63,524 nucleotides of DNA, filler included, from Basidiobolus ranarum (GCA_040143965.1; 40 parts of 40 records of this genome joined end to end with filler, not necessarily neighbours in it); one strand, 5' to 3'; shown: positions 2,980 through 61,846, counted from the whole stretch's first letter. The notes: generated by a model not told the origin, from the sequence alone. Made by a program: numbers and translations.

Positions 2980-3096
2980 TGTTGAAGGATCTTGACATAA
3001 TGGGGGTAGACTTTGTGTATTAGAAGCAACTTATGATAGTGTGTTTTAGTTACTTTATTCTTAAGAGTATATGGTGACTTATATAGTAGAAAAGTA
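2980..3096 (-). mobile_element. LTR family B, partial
   Basis: Matches the 5131 end of the 5131-5447 LTR. Confidence 0.85.
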
Positions 3097-4794: not shown

Positions 4795-5132
4795 TTTCCC
4801 ATGCATTCTTGGCAGAGTCAGCATCTCTGACTAGCATAAGTTGTTGTGATCCCAGTCTTAGACATATTTCCCTAAATGCCAATCTGTCTTTTTCTTTGAA
4901 GGCTGTCCTGGCTTCTTTACATGTTGGCTTCTTTGTTTCAGTGTCAGAATCTGTACTTTCTTCTTTAGAAGTTTCTTCTTCTTGATCTGGTGGAACTACT
5001 TCCCAGACATGTTTCCCTTCAACCACAAGTTGCATCTTGAATTTCCATTCATGGAAATCTTCCCTATTGAATGTTGGAATGTTAGTAATCTCCTTTTGGG
5101 AAGAAGACTCTAATTCACTTGCTGCTACCATG
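4795..5132 (-). mobile_element. Copia family B gag N-terminus
   Basis: IPTFNREDFHEWKFKMQLVVEGKHVWEVV...DADSAKNAWE, directly downstream of the LTR and PBS. Confidence 0.9.
5121..5130 (-). promoter_or_regulatory. Primer-binding site TGGTAGCAGC (initiator-Met tRNA type)
   Basis: Immediately follows the LTR end ...CTCCAACA. It begins TGGTAGC, as iMet PBSs do. Confidence 0.75.
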
Positions 5133-5447
5133 TTGGAGGATCTTGACATAATGGGGATAGACTTTGAGTATTAGAAGCAACTTATGATAGTATGCTTTAG
5201 GTAGTTTATTCTTAAGAGTATATGGTGACTTATATAGTAGGAAAGTAAATCAATTGTTTGAGATATTCAGGAGTTTGTGTAATAAGATATAATAGATAAG
5301 TGGGGATAATAAGACATACTTGTTATATAGATATAGTGATATTCCTATTTAGAATATAGGGGCTATAGATACGTTGCTTTCTGTTTCTGATATATGTATC
5401 ATAACTAAAGTTAACTATGATGTTGAATAAAGATTAATAATTCAACA
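5131..5447 (-). mobile_element. Complete 5' LTR of Copia family B (317 bp), inserted into an LTR-A copy
   Basis: TGTTG...CAACA termini, followed by PBS and gag. LTR-A sequence resumes at 5448. Confidence 0.92.
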
Positions 5448-12776: not shown

Positions 12777-13928
12777 CATCAGGTAACTTAATCAACTTCC
12801 AAGTTTGGTTATGTATCAGTGAGAGATACTCCTCTGCCTTTGCAGCACTCCAAAACTTTGTGTTGGGACTCCCCATAACCTCCTGTACTGATTTGGGCTC
12901 ATCAGAAAAGGCTAAATTAGCACTGGGCTCTTTTGACTGGTGTGAGAGTAGTAATCAGGTGAAGATCTCATCCAGATGGATCTCCTAAGATGGGCAATTG
13001 ACACCACAACTTCTGGAACCAATTAAGGCAATGAAACCACCTCAGGCTTGGCTGAGGAGACTGCAGTTGAAGAGTTTTGATGTTTTACCCACTGATCAGG
13101 ATCTGGTGAGAGAAAGAAGAATTTTTATCAATTTTTAGTTGTTTTTCTTGATCCCAGATTATTTTGATTGTAGAATTTTTGACTTCAGTAAATTCCATGT
13201 CCCTTGACTTGATTAGCCTCTTATTCTCAGTGTCATATAGTCTGTACCTTTTTGTTCCATCACAATATCCCAAAGAATGGCCTTTTTTGTCTTTTTTAGT
13301 CCAATTTTGATCTCTTCTGGTCTAGAATCATTGTATATGCCATACTTCCAAAAACTCTAAGATTAGACACATCAGATTTACTTCAAAACTAAGCTTGATA
13401 AGGTGTCACAGCCAATAAAAACCTAGAAGGACATCTATTCCTAATATATACAGCAGTTGCAATCAAGAACTGTTTTGTAAATCTTGATCATGAAACATTG
13501 TTCTTGCCTTTTGCATTATTAATCTGTTCACATGCTCTGCTACTCCATTCTGCTGTGAAGAAAATTGCACTGTACTCCACTGTTTTATCCCATGAGTTAG
13601 GCAGAAGTTAGAGAAGAGTTTCAAGGCATATTCCCCTCCATTATCAGTATGGAAAATCTTAATCTTTAGACCTATTTCATTCTCCGCCAGTGCTTTCAAA
13701 TTTCTTGAAGGTAGCAAAGGCTTCATCCTTACTAGCCAGAAAGTAAACCCAGTATACTTTTTCCTATCATCAATAAAGGGCATAAAATACCTTTTTCTGC
13801 CTAAGGATTTTGTCTGCATTGGGCCATATAGATCTGAGTGTATCAGGCCCAATATTTGAACAATTTTGCTCATTCCATAGCCCACAGGTGGCTGTCTGTG
13901 TTGCCTACCATATAGGCAACCTTCATAT
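12777..13928 (-). pseudogene. Decayed Copia integrase
   Basis: LIHSDLYGPM, HTDNGGEY, QQNGVAEHVNR, GYCDGTKRYRLYD. Confidence 0.93.
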
Positions 13929-13954
13929 TGTTAAAATTATATAGGGAGCAATAT

Positions 13955-14027
13955 TGGTCTGGCCAGGATTTGAACCTGGGACCTCCTTCAATCTAGCAAG
14001 GTGCTCTAACCACTGAGCTACCTGTCC
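13955..14027 (-). ncRNA. tRNA-like (pseudo-tRNA) Pol III cassette inside a putative LTR end
   Basis: GGACAGGTAGCTCAGTGGTTAGAGCACCTTGCTAGATTGAAGGAGGTCCCAGGTTCAAATCCTGGCCAGACCA. The D arm, T arm, A box and B box are intact. The acceptor stem has 2 mismatches and the anticodon stem has 1. Confidence 0.85.
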
Positions 14028-14381
14028 TTGTATGCTATGCCTATATTGCTAGGGAACCTTAACCTAGTCTGTCAATGTATGGTACTTTGGCATTTCAGCT
14101 TTACAAGCAACAGATTGGCCTTAGACTTTGTGTTCAGATGCAGTCACCATACTCTATATTTTCCTCTTTAGGAATTTTTGCTTGTACCACAAGTCACCAG
14201 ACTTTCAACACATATACCCCAGATCCAGTGGAATTACAAAATTTATTCCCAAAACCATCTTGTCTTTGTTTNNNNNNNNNNNNNNNNNNNNNNNNNNNNN
14301 NNNNNNNNNNNNNNNTTAATTAATTAANNNNNNNNNNNNNNNNNNNNNNNNNNNNNNNNNNNNNNNNNNNNTGAGTGGCAG

Positions 14382-14620
14382 TTTTGAAGTTTATTGTCTT
14401 TATCATTTTTGTTATCTCTATCTTTATACATCTAACTATTTCATATATCACATATAAGTTAGTTAACATTACTTACACAAATATCACTTAGCTGAAAATT
14501 GGAAATATATTATATGTATATATGAATTATGTGAGAATTAGCAATTCCATATTGGAAATTTCAAACTCATCCAAGTTGCCCCAAAGATAGTTCATTTTAC
14601 TCCCACAGATGTTCTGAACA
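14382..14620 (+). mobile_element. LTR family C, preceded by PPT-like TGAGTGGCAG
   Basis: Homologous to 39497 onward, 31890-32012 (-), 45981-46087 and ~57090-57187. The 3' boundary is uncertain. Confidence 0.7.
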
Positions 14621-14759
14621 TAACCCTAGTGTTAGTTTTCTGTATTTTCACCAAAAGTATAAATGCTTTATTTTTGGACAATAAACAATTTTCTCACAAA
14701 GCTATTAACAACTCCACTTTTAAGAAGTTCCGCCAAATAGCCCATATTTTCCCAATATA

Positions 14760-21055: not shown

Positions 21056-22239
21056 ATGCAAGGTCTTCTGGATATTGAGGTTGTGGTGGTTGGTGATGAG
21101 ATAGACAGCTTGATTCTGGTAGAGGAACTGCTCAACTTAGGTATCCGGTGTAGAGCTTTTGGTAAGTTGGGAATTTCTTTGAAGTTGGTAATACTTGGCA
21201 TAACCCCTTTATTTCATAGCTATCACACCTTCGACCTCATTTCCACAACTGACTCTACATGCACGTACTCTCGAGATTCTTGACCAAATGAATGTACTTT
21301 CGTTATTTACTGAAAATGCTATCAAATCTACTGCGATGAAGTTCTGCACCTCTCCTTCTGGCCAAGTAACTAAAGTTTCCCTTGATGGACTTCAGAACAC
21401 TACCGAGCACCCTTATTTTTTGAGTATGAATTCTGCAAAAGTGAAGAATAGATTTGAAGAGCATTTGAGGGATGCTAGAAATTTTACTGTAGAAAAGATA
21501 AGTGATGTCTTGGAGATCCACAACGATGACGAAATCAAACTGACTGTTGAAACAACTCCTGGAATGATTGAAGAAATTAAAGCCAAGTATTTGGTTCTCT
21601 GTACCTCCAGCCAGGAACTTTACAAGAAAATTGGCATCGAAATATCCCCAAGTCAGGATTCAAGAAGGAGCTACTGGGGTGTTGAGGCGGTTGTAGAACT
21701 GGACATACCAGATCCGCACGAGCCAACGTAAGATATAACTGTTTCTTAGAATGTTGAGTTTGTAGAATGCTTATCAAATTTGTATTGCTCTACAAAATAT
21801 AGAGTTATATGGAGCAATGAGGGTTCGCTATCAATTGTAAAGGTAGCACCCGAGGATAGATATCTTTTACTGTTAGATATCGATGGAGACCCCCGGAATA
21901 CAATGACCATCGAAGAGTTCAAGACATTGACAAATCAGTATTCAAAACCTTTCAAGCTTATCTTCAATTCCGTAGATTGGCTGCGAAAGTTTACAAGCTT
22001 GGAATACAAGAACTCTCGCTATTCCCAAGGAAGTATACTTTTTTGTGGTAAGGCAACCTACTCTCAAAACCCCATGGAGTCCAGTAGGGACTTGAATCGA
22101 GGAATTCAAGATGTACATAACTTAGCTTGGAAATTGAATTTGATATTACGTGGATTTGGAAAGGACTCTGTAATTCTCGAAACTTATTCCCAGGAAAGAA
22201 GCCCTATTATCGAAACCCTACCAAATATTACAAACCGTG
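21056..22239 (+). CDS. FAD-dependent monooxygenase homolog (phenol hydroxylase/UbiH-like, FAD_binding_3) with degenerate FAD motifs, 3'-truncated
   Basis: Introns 21162-21219 and 21728-21802 give an open frame. HARTLEILDQM, LNRGIQDVHNLAWKL and LETYSQERSPI are family signatures. Confidence 0.88.
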
Positions 22240-23932: not shown

Positions 23933-25424
23933 AAGACCACCAATACTCACAGTTGACTCAAGTCCTATTGGAGCAGGTGCTCTTTTAGGCCAGAATGATG
24001 AAGCAGGCAACCAACATGCCTGCAGATATGAAAGCTGCTTATTCAACCCTAGGGAGCAGAGATATTCCCAGATCAAGAGAGAACTACTTGGAGCTGTAAA
24101 GATGATCAAGAAACTAAAGGCCCAACTCTATATGACTCACTTCATACTTGAAACAGACACAAGACCACTTATTAGGATGATCAACAAACCAGACATACCA
24201 TATGATGCAACCAACTGGTGGATGGCTTGGCTCAAGATGCTTGACTTTGAAGTAGAACACATAACAGGAAAAACAAATGTTGTTGCAGCTGGACTATCAA
24301 GAATGGGACCAAGACTTGGTGAAATACCCCTGATAACAACTTTGAAGACTCCCTTGATGCTGACATACATCAGGTATCTATCAGTACCTCTATACCTGAA
24401 GAATGGAAAGACATTCTCCATTATTTGACTACATTACAGAGACCCTACATCTTGGATCCCCAGCAGTTTGGAAACCTCAGGAGGAAAGCCCATCACTTTC
24501 TTGTAAGGGATGGACTACTTTTCAAGCAGGTTAAGGCAGGACAAGTACCAAGAAGAGTCATCTTTGACTCTAAAGAAAAGCAGAGGATCATTAAAGAGAT
24601 CCATGAAGGAGAACCAGGAGGACACCATAGGAGAGAGGCTACTTTTAAGAACTCAACACTAAGATACTATTGGATTAAACAATATCAGGATATCAAAGCA
24701 TATATGGAGACATGTGATGCATGCCAAAGGAGATCAACCAAAAGATACAAGGAACCACTTTACCCCACCTATGTACCAACACTATGGCAGAAGGTGGGAA
24801 TTGATCTTGTACATATGCCTACAGCTGGCAACAAAAAATATCTTGTTGTTGCCAGAGATGACCTTAGTGGTTGGGTGGAAGCCAGAGCTCTACCTAATAA
24901 CAAAGCAGAAACAGTTTGGAAGTTTATCTTTGAAGACATTATTTGCCACTATGGAACCATAGGACAATTCACTGCTGACCATGGAGCAATAATGTCACAG
25001 CTGATCCAGGACCTCTGCTTAAAGTATTCCTTACATATTGCACACATCACAGCTTATCATCTGCAGGCAAATGGGATGATAGAGAGAGGGCATGGACCCT
25101 TAGTGAACTCAATAGTCAAGTCCTGCCAAGGCAAATCACAACTTTGGCCACAAAAGTTACCCTTAGCACTATGGGCTGACAGGATCACTACAAAGAGAAC
25201 CACTGGAATGTTGCCCTACAGACTGATTTATTGACAAGAATGCACCTTTCCCATTGAAAAAAAGGCCACAACTTGGAACACTTTGAACTGGAAAACTAAC
25301 ATGACCACCAAAGAACTTCTCATCAACAGGATAGCCCAAATTGACAGACACCATGTTGATGTAGAAAAAGCTGCTGAAGAACTGAAGAAAGCCAGAAATG
25401 CTAACAAGGACTACTTTGACAAAA
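23933..25424 (+). mobile_element. Ty3/Gypsy RNase H and integrase (frameshifted)
   Basis: VDSSPIGAG..YSQIKRELL, HITGKTNVVA, H..GHH..CDACQR zinc finger, GIDLVHMP, ARDDLSGWVEA, QANGMIERGH. Confidence 0.93.
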
Positions 25425-25524: not shown

Positions 25525-26033
25525 ATGGTATGGCTGTTCCTCCTTCTTCCAACGCTAGTACAATTGCTACAAGTAATGCCGGAATTGAGTCGATTGCTGC
25601 CACCCAAACTAGTCAGATAGTTACGCCAGCTCTATCATCAGATACAGCCTCGCTACAGACAGTCACACCAGCATCTAGCTCAACTAGTAGCATCGATTCT
25701 TCCAACACCATTCACTCAGGTACACAGTCAACCAACGCAGAGAGTTCATCGATAACTGGATCTCAATCCTCCACTTCCTCAGGGCAAGCCCCAATAGTAG
25801 CTTCTTGTACTGGCATCGGCTCATCTGCTCCTAGTAATGCAGAAATTTCCGCAACTGGAACAAATGGCATCCCAACACCATCACAATGCCTTCCATCAAG
25901 TGAAGTGACGGGTTCACCTACTACATTGCCATCTGGAATTGTCGGTGGCGCCTGGACTACTTCGTGGAGTAGTAGCTCCTGGTCGACATCATGGACTTCT
26001 TCACACAATCCTAAAGCAACCAGTGTACAATAA
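25525..26033 (+). CDS. Ser/Thr-rich (mucin-like) protein, C-terminal fragment
   Basis: Open S/T-rich frame ending ..WTTSWSSSSWSTSWTSSHNPKATSVQ*. CpG is retained as in host genes. Confidence 0.7.
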
Positions 26034-28953: not shown

Positions 28954-29692
28954 AAGGGCCAGGGTGGGTTTTTCTTGCTATTCCAAGATATGGCTGCTTC
29001 ACTATAGAGCAAGATATATCACGTAATAGATCTTCTGTCCTCAGTATCATAACCCAAATCTGTTTCACTAAACCCAATTAGATCCTTATTCTCATAAGAA
29101 TATGTGTATCTTAATCCCATATCAATTGTCCACATCAAATGTCTGAAAAACCACTTAACTGCTACATAATGCTCAGATCCTGGGTTTTGCACATGTTGGC
29201 TACCTACTTCCACTGCAAGAGAGATTTCTGGCCAGGTTCTAGTGATGGCAAAGATCAAACTACCTTCAAAAGATTGATAAGGGAACTCAGGGCTTTCATA
29301 TGACATATTTTGAGTCATGTTTCGCCAATTTTCATCATTTTTGCTGGAATTTTTGACTAGTTTCACCCCTAGATCCATGGGAGTTGCTACTGGCTTACAA
29401 TTCTCCATCCAGTAATGTCTAAGAATGTCTGAGATGTAATTAGATTGACTCAGAGTAATAGATTTGCTCAGTATATCTGTATGGATCTGCAGGCCCAAAC
29501 AATTCATAAGTTCACCAAAATTGGTCATCTTGAATTGGACTGATAGATCTCTTTTGGTGTTCCTAGAGCTTCATCATTATGGTAGCTATTATCAGATCAT
29601 TTACATATAAGGCAGGTATCATCTTACCGTCCTTTGTTGTCATAAAGTAGATCCCAAAATCCACCATACTCTTTAGGAAATTTAGAGATTTC
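28954..29692 (-). pseudogene. Copia RT-RNase H fragment
   Basis: CKPVATPMD, PYQSFEGSLIF..TWPEIS, DRRSIT. Confidence 0.92.
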
Positions 29693-31789: not shown

Positions 31790-32142
31790 NNNNNNNNNNN
31801 NNNNNNNNNNNNNNNNNNNNNNNNNNNNNNNNNTTAATTAATTAANNNNNNNNNNNNNNNNNNNNNNNNNNNNNNNNNNNNNNNNNNNNTTCCAATTTTC
31901 AGTTAAGTGATATTTGACTAAGTAATGCTAACTAACTTATATCTGATATATGAGATAGTTAGGTGTACAAAGATAGAGATAACAAATAGGATAAGGACAA
32001 TAAACTTCAACAAATATTATTCATCAATGAAGCTGAATAATTTTCACTTGCTTCAAGCCCAGTATGCAAGTTTCTGCCACTTTTATCACCATTGATCATG
32101 CTTTGGAATCAAAATGGGTACTAACTTTTGTAATAACAAGAT

Positions 32143-33235
32143 TGTTGGAGGATTATGACATAATGGGGGTAGACTTTGAGTATTAGAAGCAACTTATGAT
32201 AGTGTGTTTTAGTTACTTTATTCTTAAGAGTATATGGTGGCATATATAGTGGAAAAGTAAATCAATTGTTTGAGATATTCAGGAGTTTTTGTAATAGGAT
32301 ATAATAGATAAGTGGGGGTAATAAGACAAACTTGTTATATAGATATAGAGTATTCCTATTTGGAATATTGGGGCTATAGATACATTGCTCTCTGTTTCTG
32401 ATATATGTATTGTAACTAAAGTTAACTATGATGTTGAATAATGATACATTATCCAACACCTTCCCTTAATTCTTATTCAGCTTTGTGCTTATATTCCCTA
32501 ATGCCTTTTCCTGCTCTTAACTTCTCTATGCTTGAAGTTTTGAGTGGTTTTGTTAGTATATCTGCCAGCATGTTTTCAGCATTAAAATAAATAAAGTTCA
32601 CGTCTTTGTCTCAAACTTTCTCTCATATATAATGATGTCTTATCTCAATGTGTTTCATCCTTGTGTGATGCTTGGGATTCTTGGTGATCTGAATACAACT
32701 GCTATTATCTTGATATATTGGGGTAGGAATAACTTGATCATTTCCTAGTTCCTTGAGAAGACTCCTTAGCCATATAGCTTCTTGAACAGCCATAGAGCTT
32801 GGCATAAATTCTGCTTTTGTAGTTGATAATGCAACAGTTTGTTGTTTCTTGCTAATCCAGCTTATTGGCCCACCTGCTAACTTAAACACATATCCAGTTC
32901 TGGATTTATAGTCTTGCATATCAATAGCCCAGTCTGCATCAGCATATCCATACAAAGTAAGTGACATGTTATACTGCTTACTAAATTGAATTCCAAGATG
33001 TCTTGTTCCATTCAGATAGCATATTATCTGTTAAACAGCTGTCCAATGTTCCATTGCAGGTTTTTCCATATATTTGCTTACTATGCTTACTGCTGTAGCA
33101 ATATCAGGCCAAGTACCGGTTGTTGAATATTTGAGACTTCCAACTGCACTATGGTAAGGAATATGTTTCATGATTTCAATAACTTTGGAGGTCTTTGGTT
33201 CCATATTCTTAGTGAGTTTCAGCATACGTAGTGGA
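32143..33235 (-). mobile_element. 3' end of Copia family B: RT/RNase H, PPT (AAGGGAAGG, 32459-32467), complete 3' LTR 32143-32458
   Basis: YADADWA..KSRTGYVF..WISKKQQTVALST..RMKHIEIRHHYI, then a purine tract abutting TGTTGG. Confidence 0.93.
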
Positions 33236-38249: not shown

Positions 38250-39600
38250 GAATGGGGACTTGAAAGAGGATATATTCATGGATCAACCAGATGCTTTTGT
38301 GGATCCTGAGCACCCTGAGGATGTGTGTGAGCTACAAAAGTCACTGTATGGACTTAAACAATCACCCAGGGCCTGGTATACTAAGATAGGTACATACTTG
38401 GAATCACTTGATTTCCAAAAGAGTACAGTGGATTTTGGGATTTACTTTAAGACAGAAAGGGACAGTAAGGTGATACTTGCCTGATATGTAGATGATCTGT
38501 TTATAGCTACCAATAATGTTGAAGCTCTCAGGAACACCTAAAGAGATCTATCAGTCCAATTCAAAATGACTGATTTAGGTGAACTTGCATGTTTTTTAGG
38601 TCTTCAGATCCATACAGATATATTAAGTAAATCTATTACTCTGAATCAGTCAAAATACATCTCAGATAATCTCGGATGTTACCGGATGGAGAATTGCTAG
38701 CCAGTAGCAACTCCCATGGATCCAGGTGTGAAACTAGTCAAAAATCCCATAAAAAATGATGAAAATTGGCCAAATATGGTTCAAAATATGTCATTTGCAA
38801 GCCCTGAGTTACCTTATCAATCTATGCTAGGTAGTATGATCTATGCTATGACTGGAACCCGGCCAGATTTCTCTTTTGCAGTGGGAGTAGTCTGTCACCA
38901 TGTGCAAAACCTAGGATCTGAGCATTATGCAGCAGTTAAGCAGATTTTCAGATATTTGAAGGGGATAATTGATCTGGGATTGAGATAGACATATTCTTAT
39001 AAGGAAAAGGATCTAATTGGGCTTAGCAATGCAGATTGGGGATGTGATATTGAGGACAGAAGATCTATCACTGGATATATCTTTCTCTATAGTGAAGCAG
39101 CCATATCTTGGAATAGCAAGAAACAACCCACCATAGCACTTTCAACAACTGAAGCAGAATACATGGCAGCATCACATACAACAAAGGAAGCTATGTGGTT
39201 AAGGAAGCTGTTCAAAGACTTGGGCATTATTCAAAGTTCACCCACCATAATTTTCAAGGATAATCAAAGTTGCATTTCTTTAGCTAAAATCCCAAATTTC
39301 ATGCTAGAAGTAAGCACATTGATATTCAACATCACTTTGTTAGGGAAGCTATTGAGAATAAGCACGTCCAACTGGAGTACTGTCCAACTGAGGACATGAT
39401 TGCTGACATCCTTACCAAACTATTCCCCAGGCCTAAATTTGAAGAGTCAAGATTTAAGTTAGGATCAAGATATATGAATATATAGTTGAGTGGGAGTGTT
39501 GAAGTATATTGTCTTTATCATATTTGTTATCTCTATCTTTATACACCTAACTATTTCATATAACACATATAAGTTAGTTAACATTGCTTAGTCAAATCTC
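38250..39600 (+). mobile_element. Copia family C RT-RNase H, PPT (TGAGTGGGAG, 39487-39496) and start of 3' LTR (39497)
   Basis: [37 protein letters not shown], then a purine tract abutting TGTTGAAG. Confidence 0.93.
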
Positions 39601-39664
39601 ACAAAGCTATTCACAACTCCACTTTTCTAGGGTTCCTCCAAACAGCCCATATTTTCCCAATATA

Positions 39665-43013: not shown

Positions 43014-44258
43014 TAATCCTAATAAAGGTCTAAATTTCTCAAATTTCTGTCTAGCTAATGGTTTGGTTAGTATATCAGCAATCATGTCTTCTGTAGAACA
43101 ATAAGTTAAGTCAATAAACTTATTATCTATAGTCTCTCTAATGAACTGATGCTTAATATCTATGTGTTTGCTTCTATTATGAAACGTGGGTTTTTTTGCT
43201 AATTTGATACAACTTGATTATCTTGAAATATTGTAGTTGGTGAATTTTGAGAATAACCCAAATCTGTTAAGAGTTTTCTGAGCCATATTGCTTCTTTTGT
43301 TGCTTCACAGGCAGCTATGTATTCAGCTTCTGTTGTTGAAAGTGCTACAGTAGGTTGTTTCTTTGAATTCCAAGAAATAGCTCCATTACAGCAAAGTATT
43401 AAGTATCCTGTTGTATATCTCCAGTCTTCAATGTCTCCTCCTCATTTTGCATCTGAATATCCCATCAGATCAAAATTTGATCCAGAATATGTGTATTATA
43501 AGCATATATCTACAGTACCTTTCAAATATCTGAAAATCTGCATAACTGCAATGATTTGATCAGATCCATAATTTTGAAGATATTGACACTTAACTCCCAC
43601 AGAATGTGCAATATCTGGCCATGTTTTAACCATGATATACGTCAAATTACCAACCATAGATTGATAAGGAAATTTCTGGCTTTCATTTGAACCCAAAAAC
43701 ATCTGATTTGAGCCATTTTTGGTCAAGTTAAGATTTGCCTCCATTAGGGTAGATACTGAATTACATTCTTCCTTTTTATACTTCTTTAGTATATCCAGGA
43801 TATACTTAGACTGGTTTAAAGTTATTGTTCTGGTAGTTCTATCTATCATAGCTTGGATTCCAAGATAGTATGTCAGTTCATCAAGATCAGGCATTTTGAA
43901 TTTGGTAGATAAGTTGGATTTGGTTTTTTCCAAAGTCTTCAAGTCATTGGTTGCTATAATAAGATCATCTAAATATAAGGCTAATAAAACTGGGTTTGTC
44001 TTATCTGGTCTGAAATAGATACTATAGTCAGCTTTACTCTTTTGGAATTTGAGTGTTTCCAAAAAAGCATCTATCTTGCTATTCCAAGCTCTTGGAGATT
44101 GTTTTAGGCCATATAGTGTTTTCTGGAGTCTGCAAACATTTTTAGGGTTTTCTGGGTCCACAAATCCATCTGGCTGGTCCTTATAGATCTCCTTGGCAAG
44201 CTCACCATTCAAAAAGGCAGTTTTAACATCCATTTGATGTATAATAAACTGATATTTA
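43014..44258 (-). pseudogene. Copia RT-RNase H
   Basis: [37 protein letters not shown]. Confidence 0.94.
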
Positions 44259-44425
44259 CCCTAACAAAAATAAAATTGATTTGATCCGGATCAGATCCAC
44301 CCTCCAAAATAGCAAAACCATCAGAGAACCATCACAATATTGCTGGCTTGCATTCTGCCAGGGATTTTGATGTGTGATGGCGGCTTCTTGATGGTATCTT
44401 AATGGTATTCATACATGTTAAAATA
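44259..44425 (-). mobile_element. CACTA-type end inserted in Copia RT
   Basis: CCCTAACAAAAATAAAAT junction. Confidence 0.85.
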
Positions 44426-44799: not shown

Positions 44800-45690
44800 A
44801 TATCAGAGTGTAATATAAGATTACTAACTACTAAGTTATATATGACTATAAAGGTGCTTAGGCAATGTGAATTTCAACACAAGGAACCTGTGCATCAAGT
44901 GTGGGGCCTCTAGCACAAGTTTGAAAAGTACATATATTTGAGAACTTCTAAGTTGGTAATTGTTGGAGGATCTTGACATAATGAGGGTAGACTTTGAGTA
45001 TTAGAAGCAACTTGTGATAGTGTGTTTTAGTTAGTTTATTCTCTAGATAGTTACTTTATTCTTAAGCATCTATGGTGACTTATAGAGTAGAAAAGTAAAT
45101 CAATTGTTTGAGATATTCAGGAGTTTGTGTAATAAGATATAATAAATAAGTGAGGGTAATAAGACATACTTGTTTTATAGATATGGAGATATGCCTATTT
45201 AGAATATAGGGGCTATAGATATGTTGCTTTCTGTTTCTGATATATGTATCACAACTCTAGTTAACTATGATGTTGAATAAAGATTAATTATTCAACAGTA
45301 ATAGTTTTCAAGTAAATTTTGATTGTGATTAATGAGTAACATCTTAGTGAAATAGAAGATAACTAACTACTAAGCTATATGTGACTATATAGGTGCTTAG
45401 GCTATGCTAGTTTCAATATAAGGAACCTGTGTGTCAAGTGTGGGGCCTCTAGCACAGGTTTCAAAAATGTATATGTTTGAAATCTTCTATCTTGGTAAAA
45501 ATATTCAAAGTAAATTGTCATTGATAATAATGAGTAATATCTTGGTGAAGTATAAGATAGCTAAATCCTAAGCTATATATGACTATACAGGTGCTTAGGC
45601 AATGTTGATATCAATGTAAGGAACCTCTCTGTCAAGTGTGAGACCTCTAGGACAAGTTTGAAATATATATATAGTTGACAACTTCTAATT
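44800..45690 (-). repeat. ~198-bp tandem array derived from a truncated LTR-A
   Basis: The same junction (..TTCAA..|AAGGAACCT) occurs at 44881, 45421 and ~45618. Confidence 0.78.
44961..45297 (-). mobile_element. Solo LTR family B with 5-bp TSD GTAAT
   Basis: GTAAT|TGTTGG...TTCAACA|GTAAT. Confidence 0.93.
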
Positions 45691-46187
45691 AAATACAATT
45701 GAGATTAGTGAGTGATATTTGTTGTGAATTCTCAAGGAAAATAGGAGTGAAATGGATTGTGGTAAGAAAGTTTGGTTTCCACTTGTTGATTTATTAGTTG
45801 GAACTTTGGGATTTATACTTCTGTCAGAAATACCATAAACTAATAATGGGGTCATAATAAAAAGCATGTCAGTATACTGGGTACAGAGTTTGGGGGCTTT
45901 AGGATGCCTTTGAAATCTCTATTAAATTTCAACTTCCTGTATATCATTAATTATGATCAATCAGATACAAAACTTATTTCTGTTGAAGTTTATTGTCTTT
46001 ATCATATATGTTATCCCTATCTTTATACACCTAACTATTTCATATATCACATATTAGTTAGTCAACATTATTTAGTCAAATATCACTNNNNNNNNNNNNN
46101 NNNNNNNNNNNNNNNNNNNNNNNNNNNNNNNTTAATTAATTAANNNNNNNNNNNNNNNNNNNNNNNNNNNNNNNNNNNNNNNNNNNN

Positions 46188-50946: not shown

Positions 50947-51522
50947 CTGATTACTAAATCAATGAGTCTCAAAATTGGACCTATGCCTGCACAGTGCAAA
51001 AACATAACACACAGACTGTAAAAGAGGCCCTCAAAGGCCCTCACATGATATTTTGAAGATCTGGAATGGCTGCTGAGTACTTGGCTTTGATTAATAATCA
51101 AACTTGGATTTTAACCAACTTACCTGATGATAGAAAATCAAATGCCCATGATGGGTGTTTAAAGTTATACACAACTCTGATGGCAATATAGAAAGGTACA
51201 AGGCTAGACTAGTAGCCAAAGGCTATTCCCAAATACTAGGAATGGATTATATAGAAACTTTTGATCCTGTAGCAAAGTATAATTCAATTAGAATGACTTT
51301 GGCAATTTCAGCTAAATATCAGTTTATTGTACATCAAATGGATATCAAAGCAGCTTTTTCTAATGGTGAGCTAGCTGAGGAGATCTATACAAACCAGCCA
51401 GAAGTATTTGTGGACCCAAAAAATCCTAAAAAATATTGCAGATTGGGGAAAACACTATATGGCTTAAAACAATCTCCAAGAGCTTGCAATAGCAAGATGG
51501 ATGCTTTTTTGGAAACACCCAA
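50947..51522 (+). pseudogene. Copia RT N-terminal part, cut by a CACTA insertion
   Basis: [30 protein letters not shown]. Confidence 0.93.
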
Positions 51523-52432
51523 CCCTAACAAAAATAAAATCAATTTGATCCGGATCAGATCCACCCTCCAAAAGAGCAAAACTGTCAGAGAACCATCACA
51601 ATATCTGTGGCTTGCATTCTGCCAGGGATTTGGATGGTGTGATGGCAGTTTCTTGATGGTATTTTTTCAATATTCATACATGTTAAAATATAGATCCTCA
51701 AACTTGGCATGCATTATTCAATATCCGGCAATTTTTGCAAACTATAAGTTTCAAATGGCAAATTACTGGGTTTACTGCTGTAGGAATTCGAATTAATATG
51801 CATGCCTTTATTTATATATTTTAGATTTTATATTCCAGCCATAATGAGAATCAAAAAATACAAGAATCTTATTGTGTTTAGTCTCTACATTTGCAAATAC
51901 TTGACTGTTTAGACATAACTCAACAACATCAATATGCTTTACCAGAAAACTAATTGTGGAAAAGTTGCTAAGCATCGGAAATTTTGAATAGCACTGACAC
52001 TTGGCAAATAGCTGACTCTTGTTACCATTCACAATGAGAATAAGCTCTTGGATTTTGGCAAATTTCTGTCAAGATTTCAGCCAATATATCCTCAACTTGC
52101 AGTCAACCAATGTCCTGCCACAAGTAGATATGTCATTGCTTGAATAGATTACCCCATGGCTAAAATGATAATACTGCATATCTTGATCTATCTCACCAAG
52201 CAGTCTGGCTGGCAGCTTTCCTAAAAATACCATCAGATTAGCACACAAGCAAATTAGTCAAATTATAGAGGTACTTACTCTGTGTCCATGGATTGGGCTT
52301 TGTGGCTGTTATTGTGCCCAGACAATGCAAGAACCCGTGAGCACATTGAAAAGAGCCCTTTGTTGGCAGATTAATATACTCTGGAGTCTCCTTAACCCAC
52401 AGCATTACATCTATCACTGATTTTGCTGATAC
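51523..52432 (-). mobile_element. CACTA-type terminus and transposase 3' region
   Basis: CCCTAACAAAAAT is continuous with sequence homologous to the 3' part of the transposase copy at 47020-47674. This links the terminus to the transposase. Confidence 0.88.
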
Positions 52433-54117: not shown

Positions 54118-55602
54118 TTGTACTTGCCAAAGCTACGTTTTCCAGCTCCAAAAAGAGCCACTTCCTCAGATTCTTTTTCCAAATTCTTACTTCTGAGATG
54201 TTGATCCATTAGCCTTGCTACCACAAACGAAAGCAACATATCTATAGTCCTTATATACTAAATAGGAATATCCATATATCTATAAAACAAGTATGTCTTA
54301 TTAACCCTACTTATCTATTATATCTTATTACACAAACTCCTGAATATCTCAAACCATTGATTTACTTCTCAACTATATAAGTCACCATATACTCTAAAGA
54401 ATAAAGTAACTAAAACACACTGTCATAAGTTGCTTCTAATACCCAAAGTCTACTCCCATTATGTCAATATCCTCCAACAAATTCAAGACAACTAGTGTAT
54501 GCTAAGTGATCTACCTTATACAACTAAAAGTTTCAAGCTTACTTATATCTCAGAGGGCACTAAACATCCTTAGGTACAGAACTATTAGCTCAACAGTATT
54601 GATATATTTTGGATGCCTGTTGGAAGTGATTAGGAGGAACTAGAGAAATTTATGGTTTGTTCTTATTGATATATTGAGTTCAAAGTTGACATATATATCT
54701 CTGTAAAGATGTAAGCAAACTAACATGTTGAATGTGTTAGATAGGGTCCCAGAAACAGGTCTGCAGAGTGTAGGGTGGACATTTATGGTTTTATCAAAGT
54801 GCAAGCAAACTCTTATGTAGAATGTGCTAAAGAAGGTCCCAGGAGCATATGTGAAGAGTTTGGGGCTTCTGGCATAAGTTTTAAAAAATCTATATATCTG
54901 ATGGCTAAGTAAGTTCCTTGTGAGAATAATGAGAAATATCTTAGTTCAATATAGGATAACTGGGTACTAAGCGATATAAGGCTATATAGTTGTTGTCATG
55001 ATTCTGATCTTGGCATACTGATCCACTACAAATAGAACCTCTCTATTATTAGATTATGACATCATACCTGCTGTGCCATCCCTTCTTGGCAATGTGGTGT
55101 CAGTTCATCCAGATTACCTAATATGGAAAGCATGTTCCTTGGAACATTCCATGAAACCTAACCAATCATGTCATCCCACACATAGTGTATATCTGCCAAG
55201 ACCTTCCATGGAAGGTCACCTGATCATCCTTACATCATCCCTCTTTGTATTGGTCTTTGTAGTCCCTAACACCCCAACTCTCAAACTTGCCATAGTATAG
55301 TCCCTATTCAGTATATTATGTTTCACCTTGCAATATCTATATAAGCACCATGTATTCCTTGATCAGACCTCAGTCTGATCAATGCTGTAGTTGTTTTGAT
55401 GTAAGCAGCAACTATAACTGCAATATCCTAAGGGTTTTGTGTGGTGTCCAAAGGATGCAATAACCACTGTAAAATAACTCTGCAATGTACTGTAATATGG
55501 GTCTGTCTCATGCCTCTTGGGTCTTTGGGAAAGGGAATCCAGCCTCTAGAAATGTCTAAGGACTGATAAACCACAATGCAATGTCCAGCTTTCTGTTGAA
55601 TA
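54118..55602. mobile_element. LTR nest: gag remnant, LTR-B (~54223-54479), LTR-A (~54600-54990), LTR-E (54994-~55385)
   Basis: Homology to the delimited copies elsewhere in the window. Confidence 0.8.
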
Positions 55603-55702: not shown

Positions 55703-57187
55703 GATAAGTGGGGGTACTGAGACATACTTGTTTTATAGATATAGAGATATTCCTATTTAGAACATAGGGTCTATAAATACATTTCTTTCTGATTCTGATA
55801 TATGTATCATAACTAAAGTTAACTATGATGTTTAGTAAAGATTTATTATCCAACAAATAGGGAATATACTGTGGCAAGTTCAAGTGTCAGGGTGTTGAGG
55901 ACTATAAGAACCAGTACAAAGGGGGATGATGTAAGGACAATCAGGTGACCTTCCATGGAAGGTCTTGGTGGAACTATCCTATTCATAGGATGTTATTAAT
56001 GGTTATGTTTCATGGAATACTTTAAAGAACATGACTTCAATGTAAGGTAACCTGGATGAACTTGCACAAGATTGCTGAGAAAGGATGGCACAGCAGATCT
56101 GATGCCATAATCTAATAACAGAAGAATTCCATTTGCAGTGCATAAGTATGCCAAGATCAGAATCATGACATATATTGCAAAAGGAAAGGAATATCAATTA
56201 TGTACGCTACAGAAAATTTTGTATAGTCTGAAACAGGCTTCTCATTCATGGAATACCAAAATCAATTAGATCTTCATGAGACATCTTTTCATTTTAGCAG
56301 AGCTGATCACTGTATATACTTCAAGACTATCAAAGCCACAAAAGTCATAACTGCTCTCTATGTTGATAATATCATAATAGTAAGTATTTGCTCAAATCTG
56401 ATGAAGCAAATTAAGACTTGGCTATCTACCAAATTTGAAATTCAAGATCTTGGATCACTAGCATATTGTCTTGGAATGTAAATATATCAAAGTTCCAATA
56501 TTGGAACACTCTGTATTGTACGAGAAAACACATTTGAGATGTTTTGAACATATTTAATATGTCAAAATGTGATCAGCTTCAAATTAACTATATATACTGA
56601 CACTCACCAAGGATATGAAACCAAAAACCCTTTAAGATATTGAAATCATGAAATATATTCCTTACCGTAGTTCCATTGAAAGTCTCATATATGCAATAAC
56701 TGTTACTAAGCCTGATATTACTACAGCTCTAAGCATGGTAAGCAAATATTTGGAAAATCCTGCAATGGAATATTGGATGGCTGTCAAACAGATAATACAC
56801 TATCTGAATGGAACAAGTCATCATGAAATTCATTTAGTATTCAGTGCAACATAACACTTATCTTGGGAGGATATGCTGATGCAGACTAGGCTAATGATAC
56901 AGAAGACTATAAGTCCAGAACTGTCACAAAAAGGAACTGGACAAGGACTGTAAATGATGACAAGAGGCTAGAAAGTAGGAGGGTAGTTGGGTATAGACTA
57001 CAAAGCAAGACAAGGCAATACTGGACTGGGAAGATACATGGGCAAGAATATTTATTGATAGCTGGCATTGACCAGACTGAGGTCTGATGAAATTTATTGC
57101 TTTATCATATCTGTTATCTCTATCTTTATACACCTCACTATTTCATATATCAAATATAAGTTAGTTAACATTACTTACTCAAATATC
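55703..57187. mobile_element. LTR-B, LTR-E, Copia RT (56171-56921 +), LTR-E and LTR-C nest
   Basis: LYVDNIII, PYRSSIESLIY..TKPDI, YADAD, plus LTR homologies. Confidence 0.85.
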
Positions 57188-58872: not shown

Positions 58873-60356
58873 TAAATTGATTAATGCTTCATCATTACTT
58901 GAGTTAGTTTCCGGCATGTTAATGCCTTCCAAAGTGGATAGTGGATCACTAGACTGCTCATCAATTAAGTCCTCTGTTCTTGCTGGTTTTTTTTCTTTTG
59001 TGCCAGCAAGCTTTGGCTTGGAAGCCAATTTTGACTTAGATTTTTAATACTTTTGAATGGCATTGAAATTTTCAGATGGTAAACTTGGTGTAATGCAATT
59101 GCTTAGAAACAGCTTATAATAAGCTAAAATTGCCATCAATTACCGGAAAAATCTTGTAAATCCCCTGATGACTCATCTGTGACACCATCTCAGAATGAGC
59201 TGATGATATCAATGGGCTATGCCTAAAATACCACCCTTATGTGGGAGGTGTTGTTTTTCTACAATATTCTTCTCATGCCATAACACAAATGTTTAAAGAA
59301 GCCCTGCTATTATTGTCACAAATTCTTGAGCTATGAAAGCTGGAGGCTTCATAGAAAAAACAATCACAAGCATGATCACTGTACAAAGCCACCAGCTACA
59401 CAGAGCCTGGTGTATAACAATAGTAATAAGTGTACTAAATCAACTTCAGTTTTGCCCATTGAGTCCACTGACTGTAGTTTGCCTCAAAGTCTTGGTAACA
59501 CTGTCAATAGTCAAGATATGGTGGAGTTACCACAGTTATATGACCAGAATGATGTAGATATAAATGCAACTTTGGTCAAACCAGTAAGTCCAGACAACTT
59601 TGAGGACCTGCTGCTAGATGTTGACCTTAGTTATTCCAGTACCAATGGTTGTATATCAGAAGTTGAAGAAGAAGACAATGGTTTTGTTATGGACTCTTTG
59701 TTATTGGCAAACATTAGTCCACTCATAATACTTACTGTAAAGGAAGCAGCTTTGATTATTGAGGAGTGAAGAGTTCAATCCAATCTTAGCAACCAGGTGT
59801 TTGTTGATTTTCTTACACTTTTACCACAGTTGATTGGCAACTGTTGTTTGCCACAGATGTGGTACAAGTGGAAATCACTTTTCAAATGTATGACTTATAA
59901 TCCTTCAGTAATTAAACTACCTTCATGTCCAAATGGTTGTTTGGCTTTCACCGGTGATCTGAAAAACCTGAAGTCATGTACTGTTTGCACACAATTGGCA
60001 ATCACTGAATCAGGTAAATATCATTCATATTTGGCTTACATACCATTGATTCCCTGTCTTAAGGTTTTGATGAAATCACCCAAATATAGATCATTGATCC
60101 AATACCAAAGTACTCGCCATAAAGCTGATGGTATTACTGATATACTTGATGGATATCACTACCAGAATCTGAAAAGTCAATGTTTCTTTAAGAACACATA
60201 TCATCATGCATTTGCATTGGCGCTGGATGGTTTCTCATTAAACACATATACCGTTGGAAAGGCTTGCTGGCCAATAATTTTAATTAACTTAAATCTTCCT
60301 CCTTCTGAATGGTATAAGAGTCATAATATTTTGATACTATCCATCATATCTGGACC
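58873..60356. mobile_element. CACTA-type ORF2 (minus, ATG 59063) and transposase (plus, ATG 59275)
   Basis: CPNGCLAF..CTVC..YIPLIP..ITDILDG..LALDGF..CWPIILINLNLPP..IISG. Confidence 0.9.
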
Positions 60357-60456: not shown

Positions 60457-60867
60457 ATTTCCAACTTATATTCCTGTATTGCCCTTGGTGCGGATGATGC
60501 CTGAAATGGTGGAAATGGCAACGGAGATGGTAATGGCGGTGCTGGGAACGGTGGTGACAATGGCAATGGTAACGGTGGTAACGGCAATAATGGATCTGGT
60601 GCCTATGATACCGGAAAGGGTGGAAATGGCAATGGTGATGGCGGTGCTGGAGACGGTGGTGCCAATGGCAACGGTAATGATGGTAATGGAGCTGATGCCT
60701 ATGATGCTGGAAAGGGTGGAAATGGTAATGGAGATGGTACTGGCAATGGTAGCGGCAACGGAGATGGAAATAGAAATGGCGGTGATAACGGTAATGGTAA
60801 TGGAGCTGGTTCCTATGATGCTGAAAAGGGGGGTAAAAGTAATGGAGATCAGGACTGTGATAAATAG
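60457..60867 (+). pseudogene. Gly/Asn/Asp-rich repeat protein (probably secreted) with an in-frame TGA at 60502-60504
   Basis: Frame from 60457 reads ISNLYSCIALGADDA*NGGNGNGDG..GAYDTGKGGNGNG..AYDAGKGGNGNG..SYDAEKGG..QDCDK*. Confidence 0.7.
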
Positions 60868-61846
60868 AAAAGTAGTAAATATTTATCATTATATTTATGG
60901 CTCATATATGTATACTGTGAGATTTAGATGAATAAGTTCAATAAAAATATGTGTTTCTTGAGCTGCTTCAAATTATAATGATGCATAAGATATTAGTTTT
61001 TGAAGTGGTATGTATTTATAAAAGTTACAACAGCGTTTCAAATGTCGTGATAGTAGAGTGGATTCTCTAATCAACCATTGTTAGTACAACAACTCAACGA
61101 CTTTGTTAATTGGTGACTGCACGTATGTTGAGTAGGTGGCCAGAATCTTAGAATACTTATGTATAATGTAATACCCAATTACAGATGCATCTTGAAGGGC
61201 AGAGTCAGTGACAGTCACTATTAATAAAAGAACATATGCGTTGCTCTGGGTATGCGACCAAGTCAATCTCATGAATTCAAAGTTTGCTCTTAATGCTTAT
61301 GAATATCTTCAGCGTTATTTAATTCTGATGGGAGATTAGGAACGTATAATCGTTCAGAATTTATACTTAATGACGCATATGATAATAGTGAATGCATTGA
61401 TAAATCTAAACATAAAATTAGTACTTGGTAAATTTAGTACCGTGAAGGTTACTCCATTTTTGATAGGGATGCTTACAGAGACTTTACCAATAGTGAAAGT
61501 TGCAAATGCGCCGATAGATTTGTAAATGGCAATAAGTCCCAATTAACTTCACTAGATTATAAATGCCAACCAGACTAAATAACTCAGTATGGTTCAAGTC
61601 ATTATCAATCAACACTGTTTTGGCCCTACTTCTTTTAACTATGTAATTCCTTCGATATTCAATGCGCACAACGATAAATATGGGAAGAATGTATAGAAAT
61701 ATTGGATAGTGAACTGCAGTTTACCTAGAGTTAGAATGACAACTACGTGAGAATTTCATAGCCAGTCAATGAGATAAACGTATTGTTTATTGAGAACTGC
61801 ACTAAGATAGAGTATCAAAGAGCCCATAAGACAAATGTGACTGTTT

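Follow-up and report, generated by a model that had tools for sequence, protein, structure and literature searches.

The Helenus (TRIMp3) elements are TRIMs that carry a tRNA-like sequence in their LTRs (Kojima 2024, PMC10886601). As TRIMs they have a PBS and a PPT enclosed by a pair of LTRs, are non-coding, and are 311–1263 bp in length (PMC10886601). In the sections of that paper drawn upon here, box A (TRGCY..YGG) and box B (GGTTC) are described as conserved in the Helenus LTR (PMC10886601, section 3.5). Most Helenus encode no functional tRNA and have an anticodon that is at odds with the tRNA body, and it is argued there that the Pol III promoter, and not a tRNA, is what selection maintains (PMC10886601). 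The insertion of a SINE2 into an LTR is proposed as the source of the module (PMC10886601). Helenus of fungi have 5-bp TSDs and are apparently mobilised by Copia elements (PMC10886601). The PBS of fungal Helenus may match the anticodon-loop region of tRNA-iMet, Tyr, Ile or Asp, and LTR consensuses of fungal Helenus number 113. In the rust fungi they inflate the tRNA predictions, with tRNA-Ser-AGA predicted en masse among them (PMC10886601). According to Table 1 of the paper, the fungal Helenus are known only from the Pucciniales and from three Agaricomycetes (PMC10886601).

The layout of the fungal Helenus was counted by eye in the 29 complete fungal LTR records of part 4 of the supplement, which has 10 parts in all (PMC10886601). 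Within this part, 27 of the 29 LTR consensuses start with TGTT and 22 end with CA. The tRNA-like block is the last feature in every one of the 29 and is followed by a short tail, usually with a T run.

The window, meaning the whole stretch of Basidiobolus DNA that was analysed (63,524 bases), is made up of ~40 contigs of ~1.5 kb, joined by an N44-TTAATTAATTAA-N44 spacer. These contigs are unplaced and are ordered by falling size from 1498, with no real linkage across any spacer. The tRNA-like unit described here lies in the contig at 12777–14271 (1495 bp), and its real context is that contig alone. Basidiobolus is an early-diverging fungus, which abstracts place in the Zoopagomycota. The unit breaks up the coding sequence for GAG-pre-integrase and integrase in an older Copia element that has decayed, and it has the same orientation as that element (Table 1). 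It is probably a solo LTR with a tRNA-derived Pol III cassette. Judged by its layout, the likeliest parent would be a short non-autonomous element of the Helenus/TRIMp3 type, of which one copy is known here. The solo LTR reading is preferred because the end of the unit coincides with the break point in the Copia element, because the reading phase is restored across it, and because the layout is of the Helenus type. Parentage by Helenus/TRIMp3 is something that we infer from the layout only, and we class the locus as probably a solo LTR from a Helenus-like (TRIMp3) element.

Table 1. Positions in the window of the putative solo LTR and its parts, of the interrupted Copia element, and of a second LTR family.
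Feature	Position	Strand	Sequence or basis
Putative solo LTR, 282 bp	13929–14210	-	5' TGTTGAAAGTC to TTTTAACA 3'; TGTTG...AACA
TSD copy 1	13924–13928	+	CATAT (minus strand ATATG); sequence reading
TSD copy 2	14211–14215	+	CATAT; sequence reading
LTR part upstream of the tRNA-like block, U3-like, 183 nt	14028–14210	-	blastn, word size 7
tRNA-like pseudogene, 73 nt	13955–14027	-	ARAGORN; Rfam RF00005; alignment to Rfam model; MFE fold
Pol III box A	14010–14020	-	TAGCTCAGTGG; intact, fits TRGCY...YGG
Pol III box B	13966–13976	-	GGTTCAAATCC; intact, GGTTC core conserved
Anticodon AGA	13994–13992	-	within the tRNA-like block
Tail 3' of the tRNA-like block, 26 nt	13929–13954	-	TTTT run; end AACA
T4 run, candidate Pol III terminator	13936–13933	-	17–20 nt past the tRNA-like block, four bases before the LTR end
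Host element, decayed Copia pol fragment	12777–13928	-	Pfam, tblastn, protein homologues
Host element upstream of the insertion, 18–19 open codons	14216–14271	-	KQRQDGFGNKFCNSTGSGV; phase with the integrase frame
316–337 bp LTR family, solo copy	44961–45297		perfect 5-bp TSD GTAAT
316–337 bp LTR family, other full-length copies	5131–5447, 32143–32458		
316–337 bp LTR family, partial copies	54219–54479, 55704–55855, 2980–3096		

The sole tRNA predicted by ARAGORN in the window is the tRNA-like block of the unit, which is called as tRNA-Ser(aga). It scores 50.9 bits with the Rfam tRNA model RF00005, for which the gathering score is 29 (E 5.6e-8, whole window), and this model gives no second tRNA-like match in the window, even at E≤10. 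Alignment to the Rfam model has the D arm and the T arm intact. The acceptor stem contains two A-A mismatches, its non-standard pairs being at positions 3 and 5. The anticodon stem contains one G-G mismatch, and there is a variable loop of 5 nt and a T at position 37. The MFE fold of the block is not a cloverleaf and keeps the D and T arms alone (z = -0.96). A working tRNA-Ser, being of class II, has intact cloverleaf stems, a long variable arm, and a purine at position 37. The block departs from this in its mismatches in both stems, in its short variable loop, and in its T37. With broken stems, and with an AGA anticodon but none of the long variable arm that a tRNA-Ser has, the predicted tRNA-like RNA would be no working tRNA. 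An earlier note, made from the sequence, had reported a 73-nt cloverleaf on the minus strand with an A box, a B box, and D and T arms, as well as broken acceptor and anticodon stems and an AGA anticodon on a short variable loop, all of which is borne out by ARAGORN and the Rfam alignment.

A frame of 41 aa runs across the tRNA-like block. A HMMER search of 1.84 billion representatives with this frame found no family member. The 21 representatives that match at E≤0.001, with 41–61% identity, are generic tRNA- or SINE-derived frames, and these matches cover the tRNA part alone (residues ~5–33). Between the block and the T run there is a TATATAA motif (13939–13945, minus strand), ~10 nt from the LTR end. 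This motif is too near to the LTR end to act as the Pol II promoter of an R region within the LTR. An 11-nt inverted repeat around the block (13947–13957 and 14040–14050) is judged to be chance, because the 1.5-kb contig contains 22 pairs of this kind.

The near end of the unit, at 13929, was set by the end of the Copia homology, which lies at 13921–13930 in tblastn searches with 46 polyproteins. The earlier note had also placed this end 26 nt past the block, where Copia sequence resumes. On the plus strand the layout is CATAT, TGTTAAAA...TTTCAACA, CATAT, which is a perfect 5-bp duplication around the 282-bp unit. On the minus strand, positions 14215–14206 read ATATG and then TGTTG, and ATATG is found again directly past the AACA end. 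The termini are of the TG..CA type and form imperfect inverted repeats (8/11). From its TGTTG start on the minus strand the unit has 183 nt before the tRNA-like block, then the block, and then the 26-nt tail, with its TTTT and the terminal AACA.

Other claims of the earlier note are revised by these boundaries. It had put the far end at 14064, on a TTAACC at ~14059–14064, where there is no TSD or other sign of a boundary; the unit runs on to 14210. It had stated that no TSD is visible, which is corrected by the CATAT pair, and that host Copia sequence is deleted at the other flank, whereas the two flanks fuse in phase into an open frame. The view that Copia sequence was missing arose because there is no significant match to any of the 46 Copia polyproteins above 14064 (tblastn). 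The note had suggested a search for TG..CA ends and 5-bp TSDs, and these are present as TGTTG...AACA and CATAT/CATAT. Its reading of the locus as a solo LTR with a tRNA-like cassette, and not a SINE, stands as to the kind of element, given the TG..CA ends, the TSD, the block 183 nt inside, and the lack of an A-rich tail, but not as to its extent.

In 100,000 shuffles of the 343 upstream nt, ATATG followed by TG is found in 3.6% and ATATG followed by TGTT in 0.24%. Scanning the whole window for TGTT and AACA at a spacing of 100–1000 nt, flanked by a 5-bp repeat, gives 3 matches, compared to 1.7 ± 1.4 in shuffles. Apart from the unit, one of these matches (44961–45297) is a true solo LTR of the 316–337 bp family, a family that lends support to the solo LTR reading of the unit. 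Such termini with a 5-bp repeat are therefore no proof when taken alone, since 3 are observed against 1.7 expected and one has a false boundary. A TGTT..AACA candidate with ATTTT at 14410–14687 was rejected as an LTR, because a repeat family runs on upstream of its supposed end. This family (14395–14505, 31890–31984, 39510–39608, 46009–46087, and 57097–57187; 90–95% identity over 76–95 nt) passes upstream of the TGTT at 14410, and three of its copies are cut by contig ends. A second TGTTG, at 14112–14108, was rejected as the end of the unit, there being no TSD or other boundary sign at that position.

In the 63.5-kb window the 282-bp unit occurs only once (blastn), and its 183-nt U3-like part matches nothing in the window except itself (blastn, word size 7, E<0.01). 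This counts against the solo LTR reading, since a transposon should first of all be repetitive. No internal direct repeat that could represent a pair of mini-LTRs was found within the unit, and an A-rich or simple-repeat tail is absent. Two exact patterns of 22–23 nt from the unit have 0 matches in the JGI metagenome contigs, a collection that is poor for fungal repeats. Likewise, one such pattern has 0 matches in prokaryote-genome and viral contigs, which are also poor for fungal repeats.

The host Copia fragment contains the end of the GAG-pre-integrase (..YEGCLYGRQHR..), the integrase core, and the SH3-like domain, and continues towards the RT. It carries stops and frameshifts. Pfam matches are to rve (E 1.1e-5) and SH3_retrovirus (E 9.8e-11), and tblastn with Copia polyproteins reaches E values down to 2e-41. 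The 46 homologues of more than 1100 aa align collinearly from 13921–13930 to ~12781 (tblastn). The order of GAG-pre-integrase, integrase core, and SH3-like domain is the Copia domain order, in which RVT_2 comes next, and the relatives carry PF13976, PF00665, PF25597, and PF07727. The integrase piece has 324 longer homologues with 37–46% identity, the best at 44–46%, and 223 near-length homologues, the best having 57% identity over half of the query. No close paralogue or empty-site copy of the host Copia family is present among these longer and near-length protein homologues.

Upstream of the unit, the Copia flank is bounded by the contig end at 14271 and is 56 nt long. The LTR and one TSD together make 287 nt (2 mod 3), and minus frame 0 upstream joins minus frame 2 downstream. 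In silico removal of the unit and one TSD copy leaves a single open Copia frame of 173 codons, ...NSTGSGVYEGCLYGRQHR..., in which the Y at the junction takes the place of the first Cys of the CxxC in Copia relatives, with the duplicated 5-mer within that codon. The openness of the upstream flank itself says little, because two of the three frames are open in these 56 nt. A Pfam search of the three minus frames of 13900–14271, with stops as X, finds 0 families. With an HMM built from 91 distinct homologue segments, the 19 upstream residues score 12.2 bits, compared to 10.1 ± 1.2 when shuffled, a score that is equalled in 38 of 500 shuffles. In ungapped BLOSUM62 comparisons with 99 distinct homologue segments, three statistics are equalled by 124, 189, and 245 of 2000 shuffles. 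Extension by blastp over the in silico empty site crosses the junction in 87 of 120 cases, which is non-discriminating as up to 81 of 120 cross it with shuffled upstream residues. These 19 upstream residues show a weak and no more than suggestive homology to GAG-pre-integrase.

Further fragments of Copia-type RT (RVT_2) are found in the window at 43496–44260 (minus strand, E 5e-48), 51152–51796 (plus strand, E 2e-38), and 29019–29570 (minus strand, E 2e-8). Since there are RVT_2 fragments on at least 3 other contigs, Copia machinery is present in the genome. Copia elements abound in this sample of small contigs. A Ty3/Gypsy-type pol fragment is present at 23934–25234 (plus strand), spread over two overlapping frames, with RNase H (PF17917, E 3e-19), an integrase H2C2 zinc-binding domain (E 3e-14), and the rve core. 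A fragment of a host gene for a FAD-dependent monooxygenase (PF01494) lies at 21204–22238 (plus strand) and is split by a single stop or break of frame located between 21731 and 21750; its ORF at 21750–22238 has 100% identity to a B. ranarum protein and 73% to a B. meristosporus protein. The ORF at 59770–60354 (plus strand) has a weak match to the tnp2 transposase (PF02992, E 1e-5, below the gathering score) and is part of a DNA transposon, truncated where the contig stops. Low-complexity open frames are found at 60457–60931 and 25525–26033 (both plus strand), one with M/V/E/A-rich repeats and the other Ser/Thr-rich. The abundant 316–337 bp LTR family has TGTTGG...CAACA ends, and its copies are 80–87% identical to each other and end in unrelated flanks.

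Instead of a Helenus TRIM, the parent of the solo LTR might have been an ordinary autonomous Copia or Gypsy element, with a tRNA-derived stretch in U3/R by chance, for example from an old SINE or tRNA insertion. The block need not then drive transcription. At 282 bp the unit is of ordinary LTR size, the other LTR family of the window measures 316–337 bp, and the PBS, PPT, and internal part are not present at a solo LTR. This origin is nevertheless rather unlikely, as the block is at the 3' extremity of the LTR and the T run is four bases before the terminus, which is the layout of the fungal Helenus in the supplement part counted. In addition, boxes A and B are intact where the stems have decayed, which suggests a promoter under selection. 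A greater departure from the solo LTR reading would be chance juxtaposition, in which a tRNA pseudogene or relic with its own T-run terminator stands beside a 5'-truncated Copia element and the CATAT and TGTT/AACA are coincidental, or in which the contig is chimeric. The unit is single copy within the window, the homology of the upstream flank is not significant, an unplaced contig of 1.5 kb could well be a chimera where the assembly is rich in repeats, and TGTT..AACA with a 5-bp repeat is expected ~1.7 times per window by chance. Such a coincidence is improbable, however, given that the near end is the stop of the Copia homology to the base, that the far end has the matching 5-mer followed by TGTT (0.24% of shuffles), that the reading phase is restored across the junction, and that the block cannot be a working tRNA-Ser.

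The tRNA-like head, the A and B boxes, and the T run would also fit a tRNA-derived SINE (SINE2), or a fragment of one, put into the Copia element by LINE machinery. The 41-aa frame, too, resembles translated tRNA-derived SINEs, with its 21 representatives at E≤0.001 matching in the tRNA part alone. A SINE is highly improbable here, since within the TSD-bounded unit the block has 183 nt before it and 26 nt after it, and since the unit lacks a poly(A) or simple-repeat tail, has TG..CA ends with a terminal AACA, and is flanked by a TSD of exactly 5 bp. A MITE with a captured tRNA-like segment, moved by an integrase-like DDE transposase such as those of the Ginger type, has just as little to recommend it. 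Ginger-type DDE transposases are associated with TGT..ACA ends and short TSDs, and the unit does have inverted-repeat termini (8/11) and a short TSD of fixed length. However, its terminal inverted repeat is imperfect and only ~11 nt long, as those of LTRs usually are, and its layout is that of the Helenus LTRs in the counted records. No such transposase is found in the window, in which the tnp2-family fragment is the sole DNA-transposase match.

If the unit is a solo LTR of a Helenus-type element, the full parent element would have consisted of an LTR, a PBS, a short internal part, a PPT, and a second LTR. It would have been reverse-transcribed and integrated in trans by enzymes of the Copia type, which are suggested because the 5-bp duplication is of the Copia-type length. 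Recombination between the LTRs would then have left a single LTR. In the parent, the tRNA-like block would recruit TFIIIC, TFIIIB, and Pol III, with transcription starting at the tRNA-like 5' end, which would be the start of R. The T run near the LTR end would set the 3' end of the transcript in the downstream LTR, whereas in the upstream LTR Pol III would have to pass it. In yeasts T4 runs are weak Pol III terminators, which would permit such read-through. Against this model, the T4 run 17–20 nt past the tRNA-like block could halt Pol III inside the 5' LTR. Selection for the Pol III promoter, and not for a tRNA, is suggested because the A and B boxes are intact beside decayed stems. The solo copy could still yield a transcript, predicted to be ~95 nt.

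No literature naming Helenus together with Basidiobolus was found in the library searched, and the passages searched of a preprint on Basidiobolus genomes make no mention of tRNA, LTR, or transposable. The locus is a probable Helenus-like element in a fungal phylum that has none in print in the searched library. LTR elements with a borrowed Pol III promoter are few, being Cassandra, Helenus, and Ajax, and the fungal ones reported to date come only from rusts and from three agaricomycetes. If Basidiobolus has a member, the range would extend to a second fungal phylum, which would bear on single versus multiple origins. A more far-reaching suggestion, which is doubtful at present, is that Basidiobolus may hold an undescribed multi-copy lineage of Pol III-promoter TRIMs (Helenus/TRIMp3), with a module related to that of the rust-fungus Helenus by descent or horizontal transfer. 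If this is true, the origin of fungal Helenus would be far deeper than the ~130 million years estimated for the Pucciniales, or there would have been transfer between fungal phyla. As tRNA predictors call this locus tRNA-Ser(AGA), the tRNA counts of Basidiobolus would be inflated if the family exists, as they are described to be in the rust fungi (PMC10886601). The present weight of the finding is modest, the evidence being one dead copy on a 1.5-kb contig.

Among the elements with which the unit can be compared, the 316–337 bp LTR family of the window has similar TGTTG...CAACA ends, a 5-bp TSD on its solo copy, and a similar size. It differs in having no tRNA-like block and no sequence similarity to the unit, and in being multi-copy in the window. 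The tRNA-derived SINEs (SINE2) share a tRNA-derived head with A and B boxes, whereas in the unit the block is not 5'-terminal, there is no LINE-type tail, and TG..CA ends are combined with a fixed 5-bp TSD. [quoted passage not shown]

The differences from Helenus lie in what is in view, in the spacing of the T run, and in the host. The unit is a single solo LTR, with the second LTR, PBS, PPT, and copy number not in view. Its T run is 17–20 nt past the block, compared to a few nt in most of the consensuses in the supplement part considered. Its host is Basidiobolus (Zoopagomycota), where the published fungal hosts of Table 1 are Pucciniales and three Agaricomycetes. The published Helenus consensus file contains no exact match to three unit-specific 11–12-mers, from the non-tRNA part or the anticodon, and because of this the unit is probably not a copy of a published Helenus family. 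Two motifs from its tRNA part occur 3 and 10 times in the published Helenus consensuses.

The unit combines, as a Helenus LTR does, a tRNA-derived sequence that has boxes A and B with LTR-type termini and a 5-bp TSD. In common with the Helenus records considered, it has a TGTTG start and an ACA end, and its block with boxes A and B is the 3'-most part of the LTR except for a short tail that contains a T run. It likewise shares with them, as far as the paper is cited here, the 5-bp TSD, a Copia-rich setting, and a predicted tRNA that would be non-functional and has an anticodon at odds with its body, AGA being among those predicted en masse from Helenus. Over the 36 positions that begin with box A and finish with the anticodon stem, the CTAGAT loop included, 31 are identical to Helenus-3_MLP-LTR when compared by eye and unaligned, much of this identity being the widely shared D-arm, a 19-mer of which occurs 10 times in the published consensus file. 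The likeness to the rust-fungus Helenus extends over a 21-nt D-arm, the CTAGAT anticodon loop, the TGTTG...ACA ends, and the T run by the terminus.
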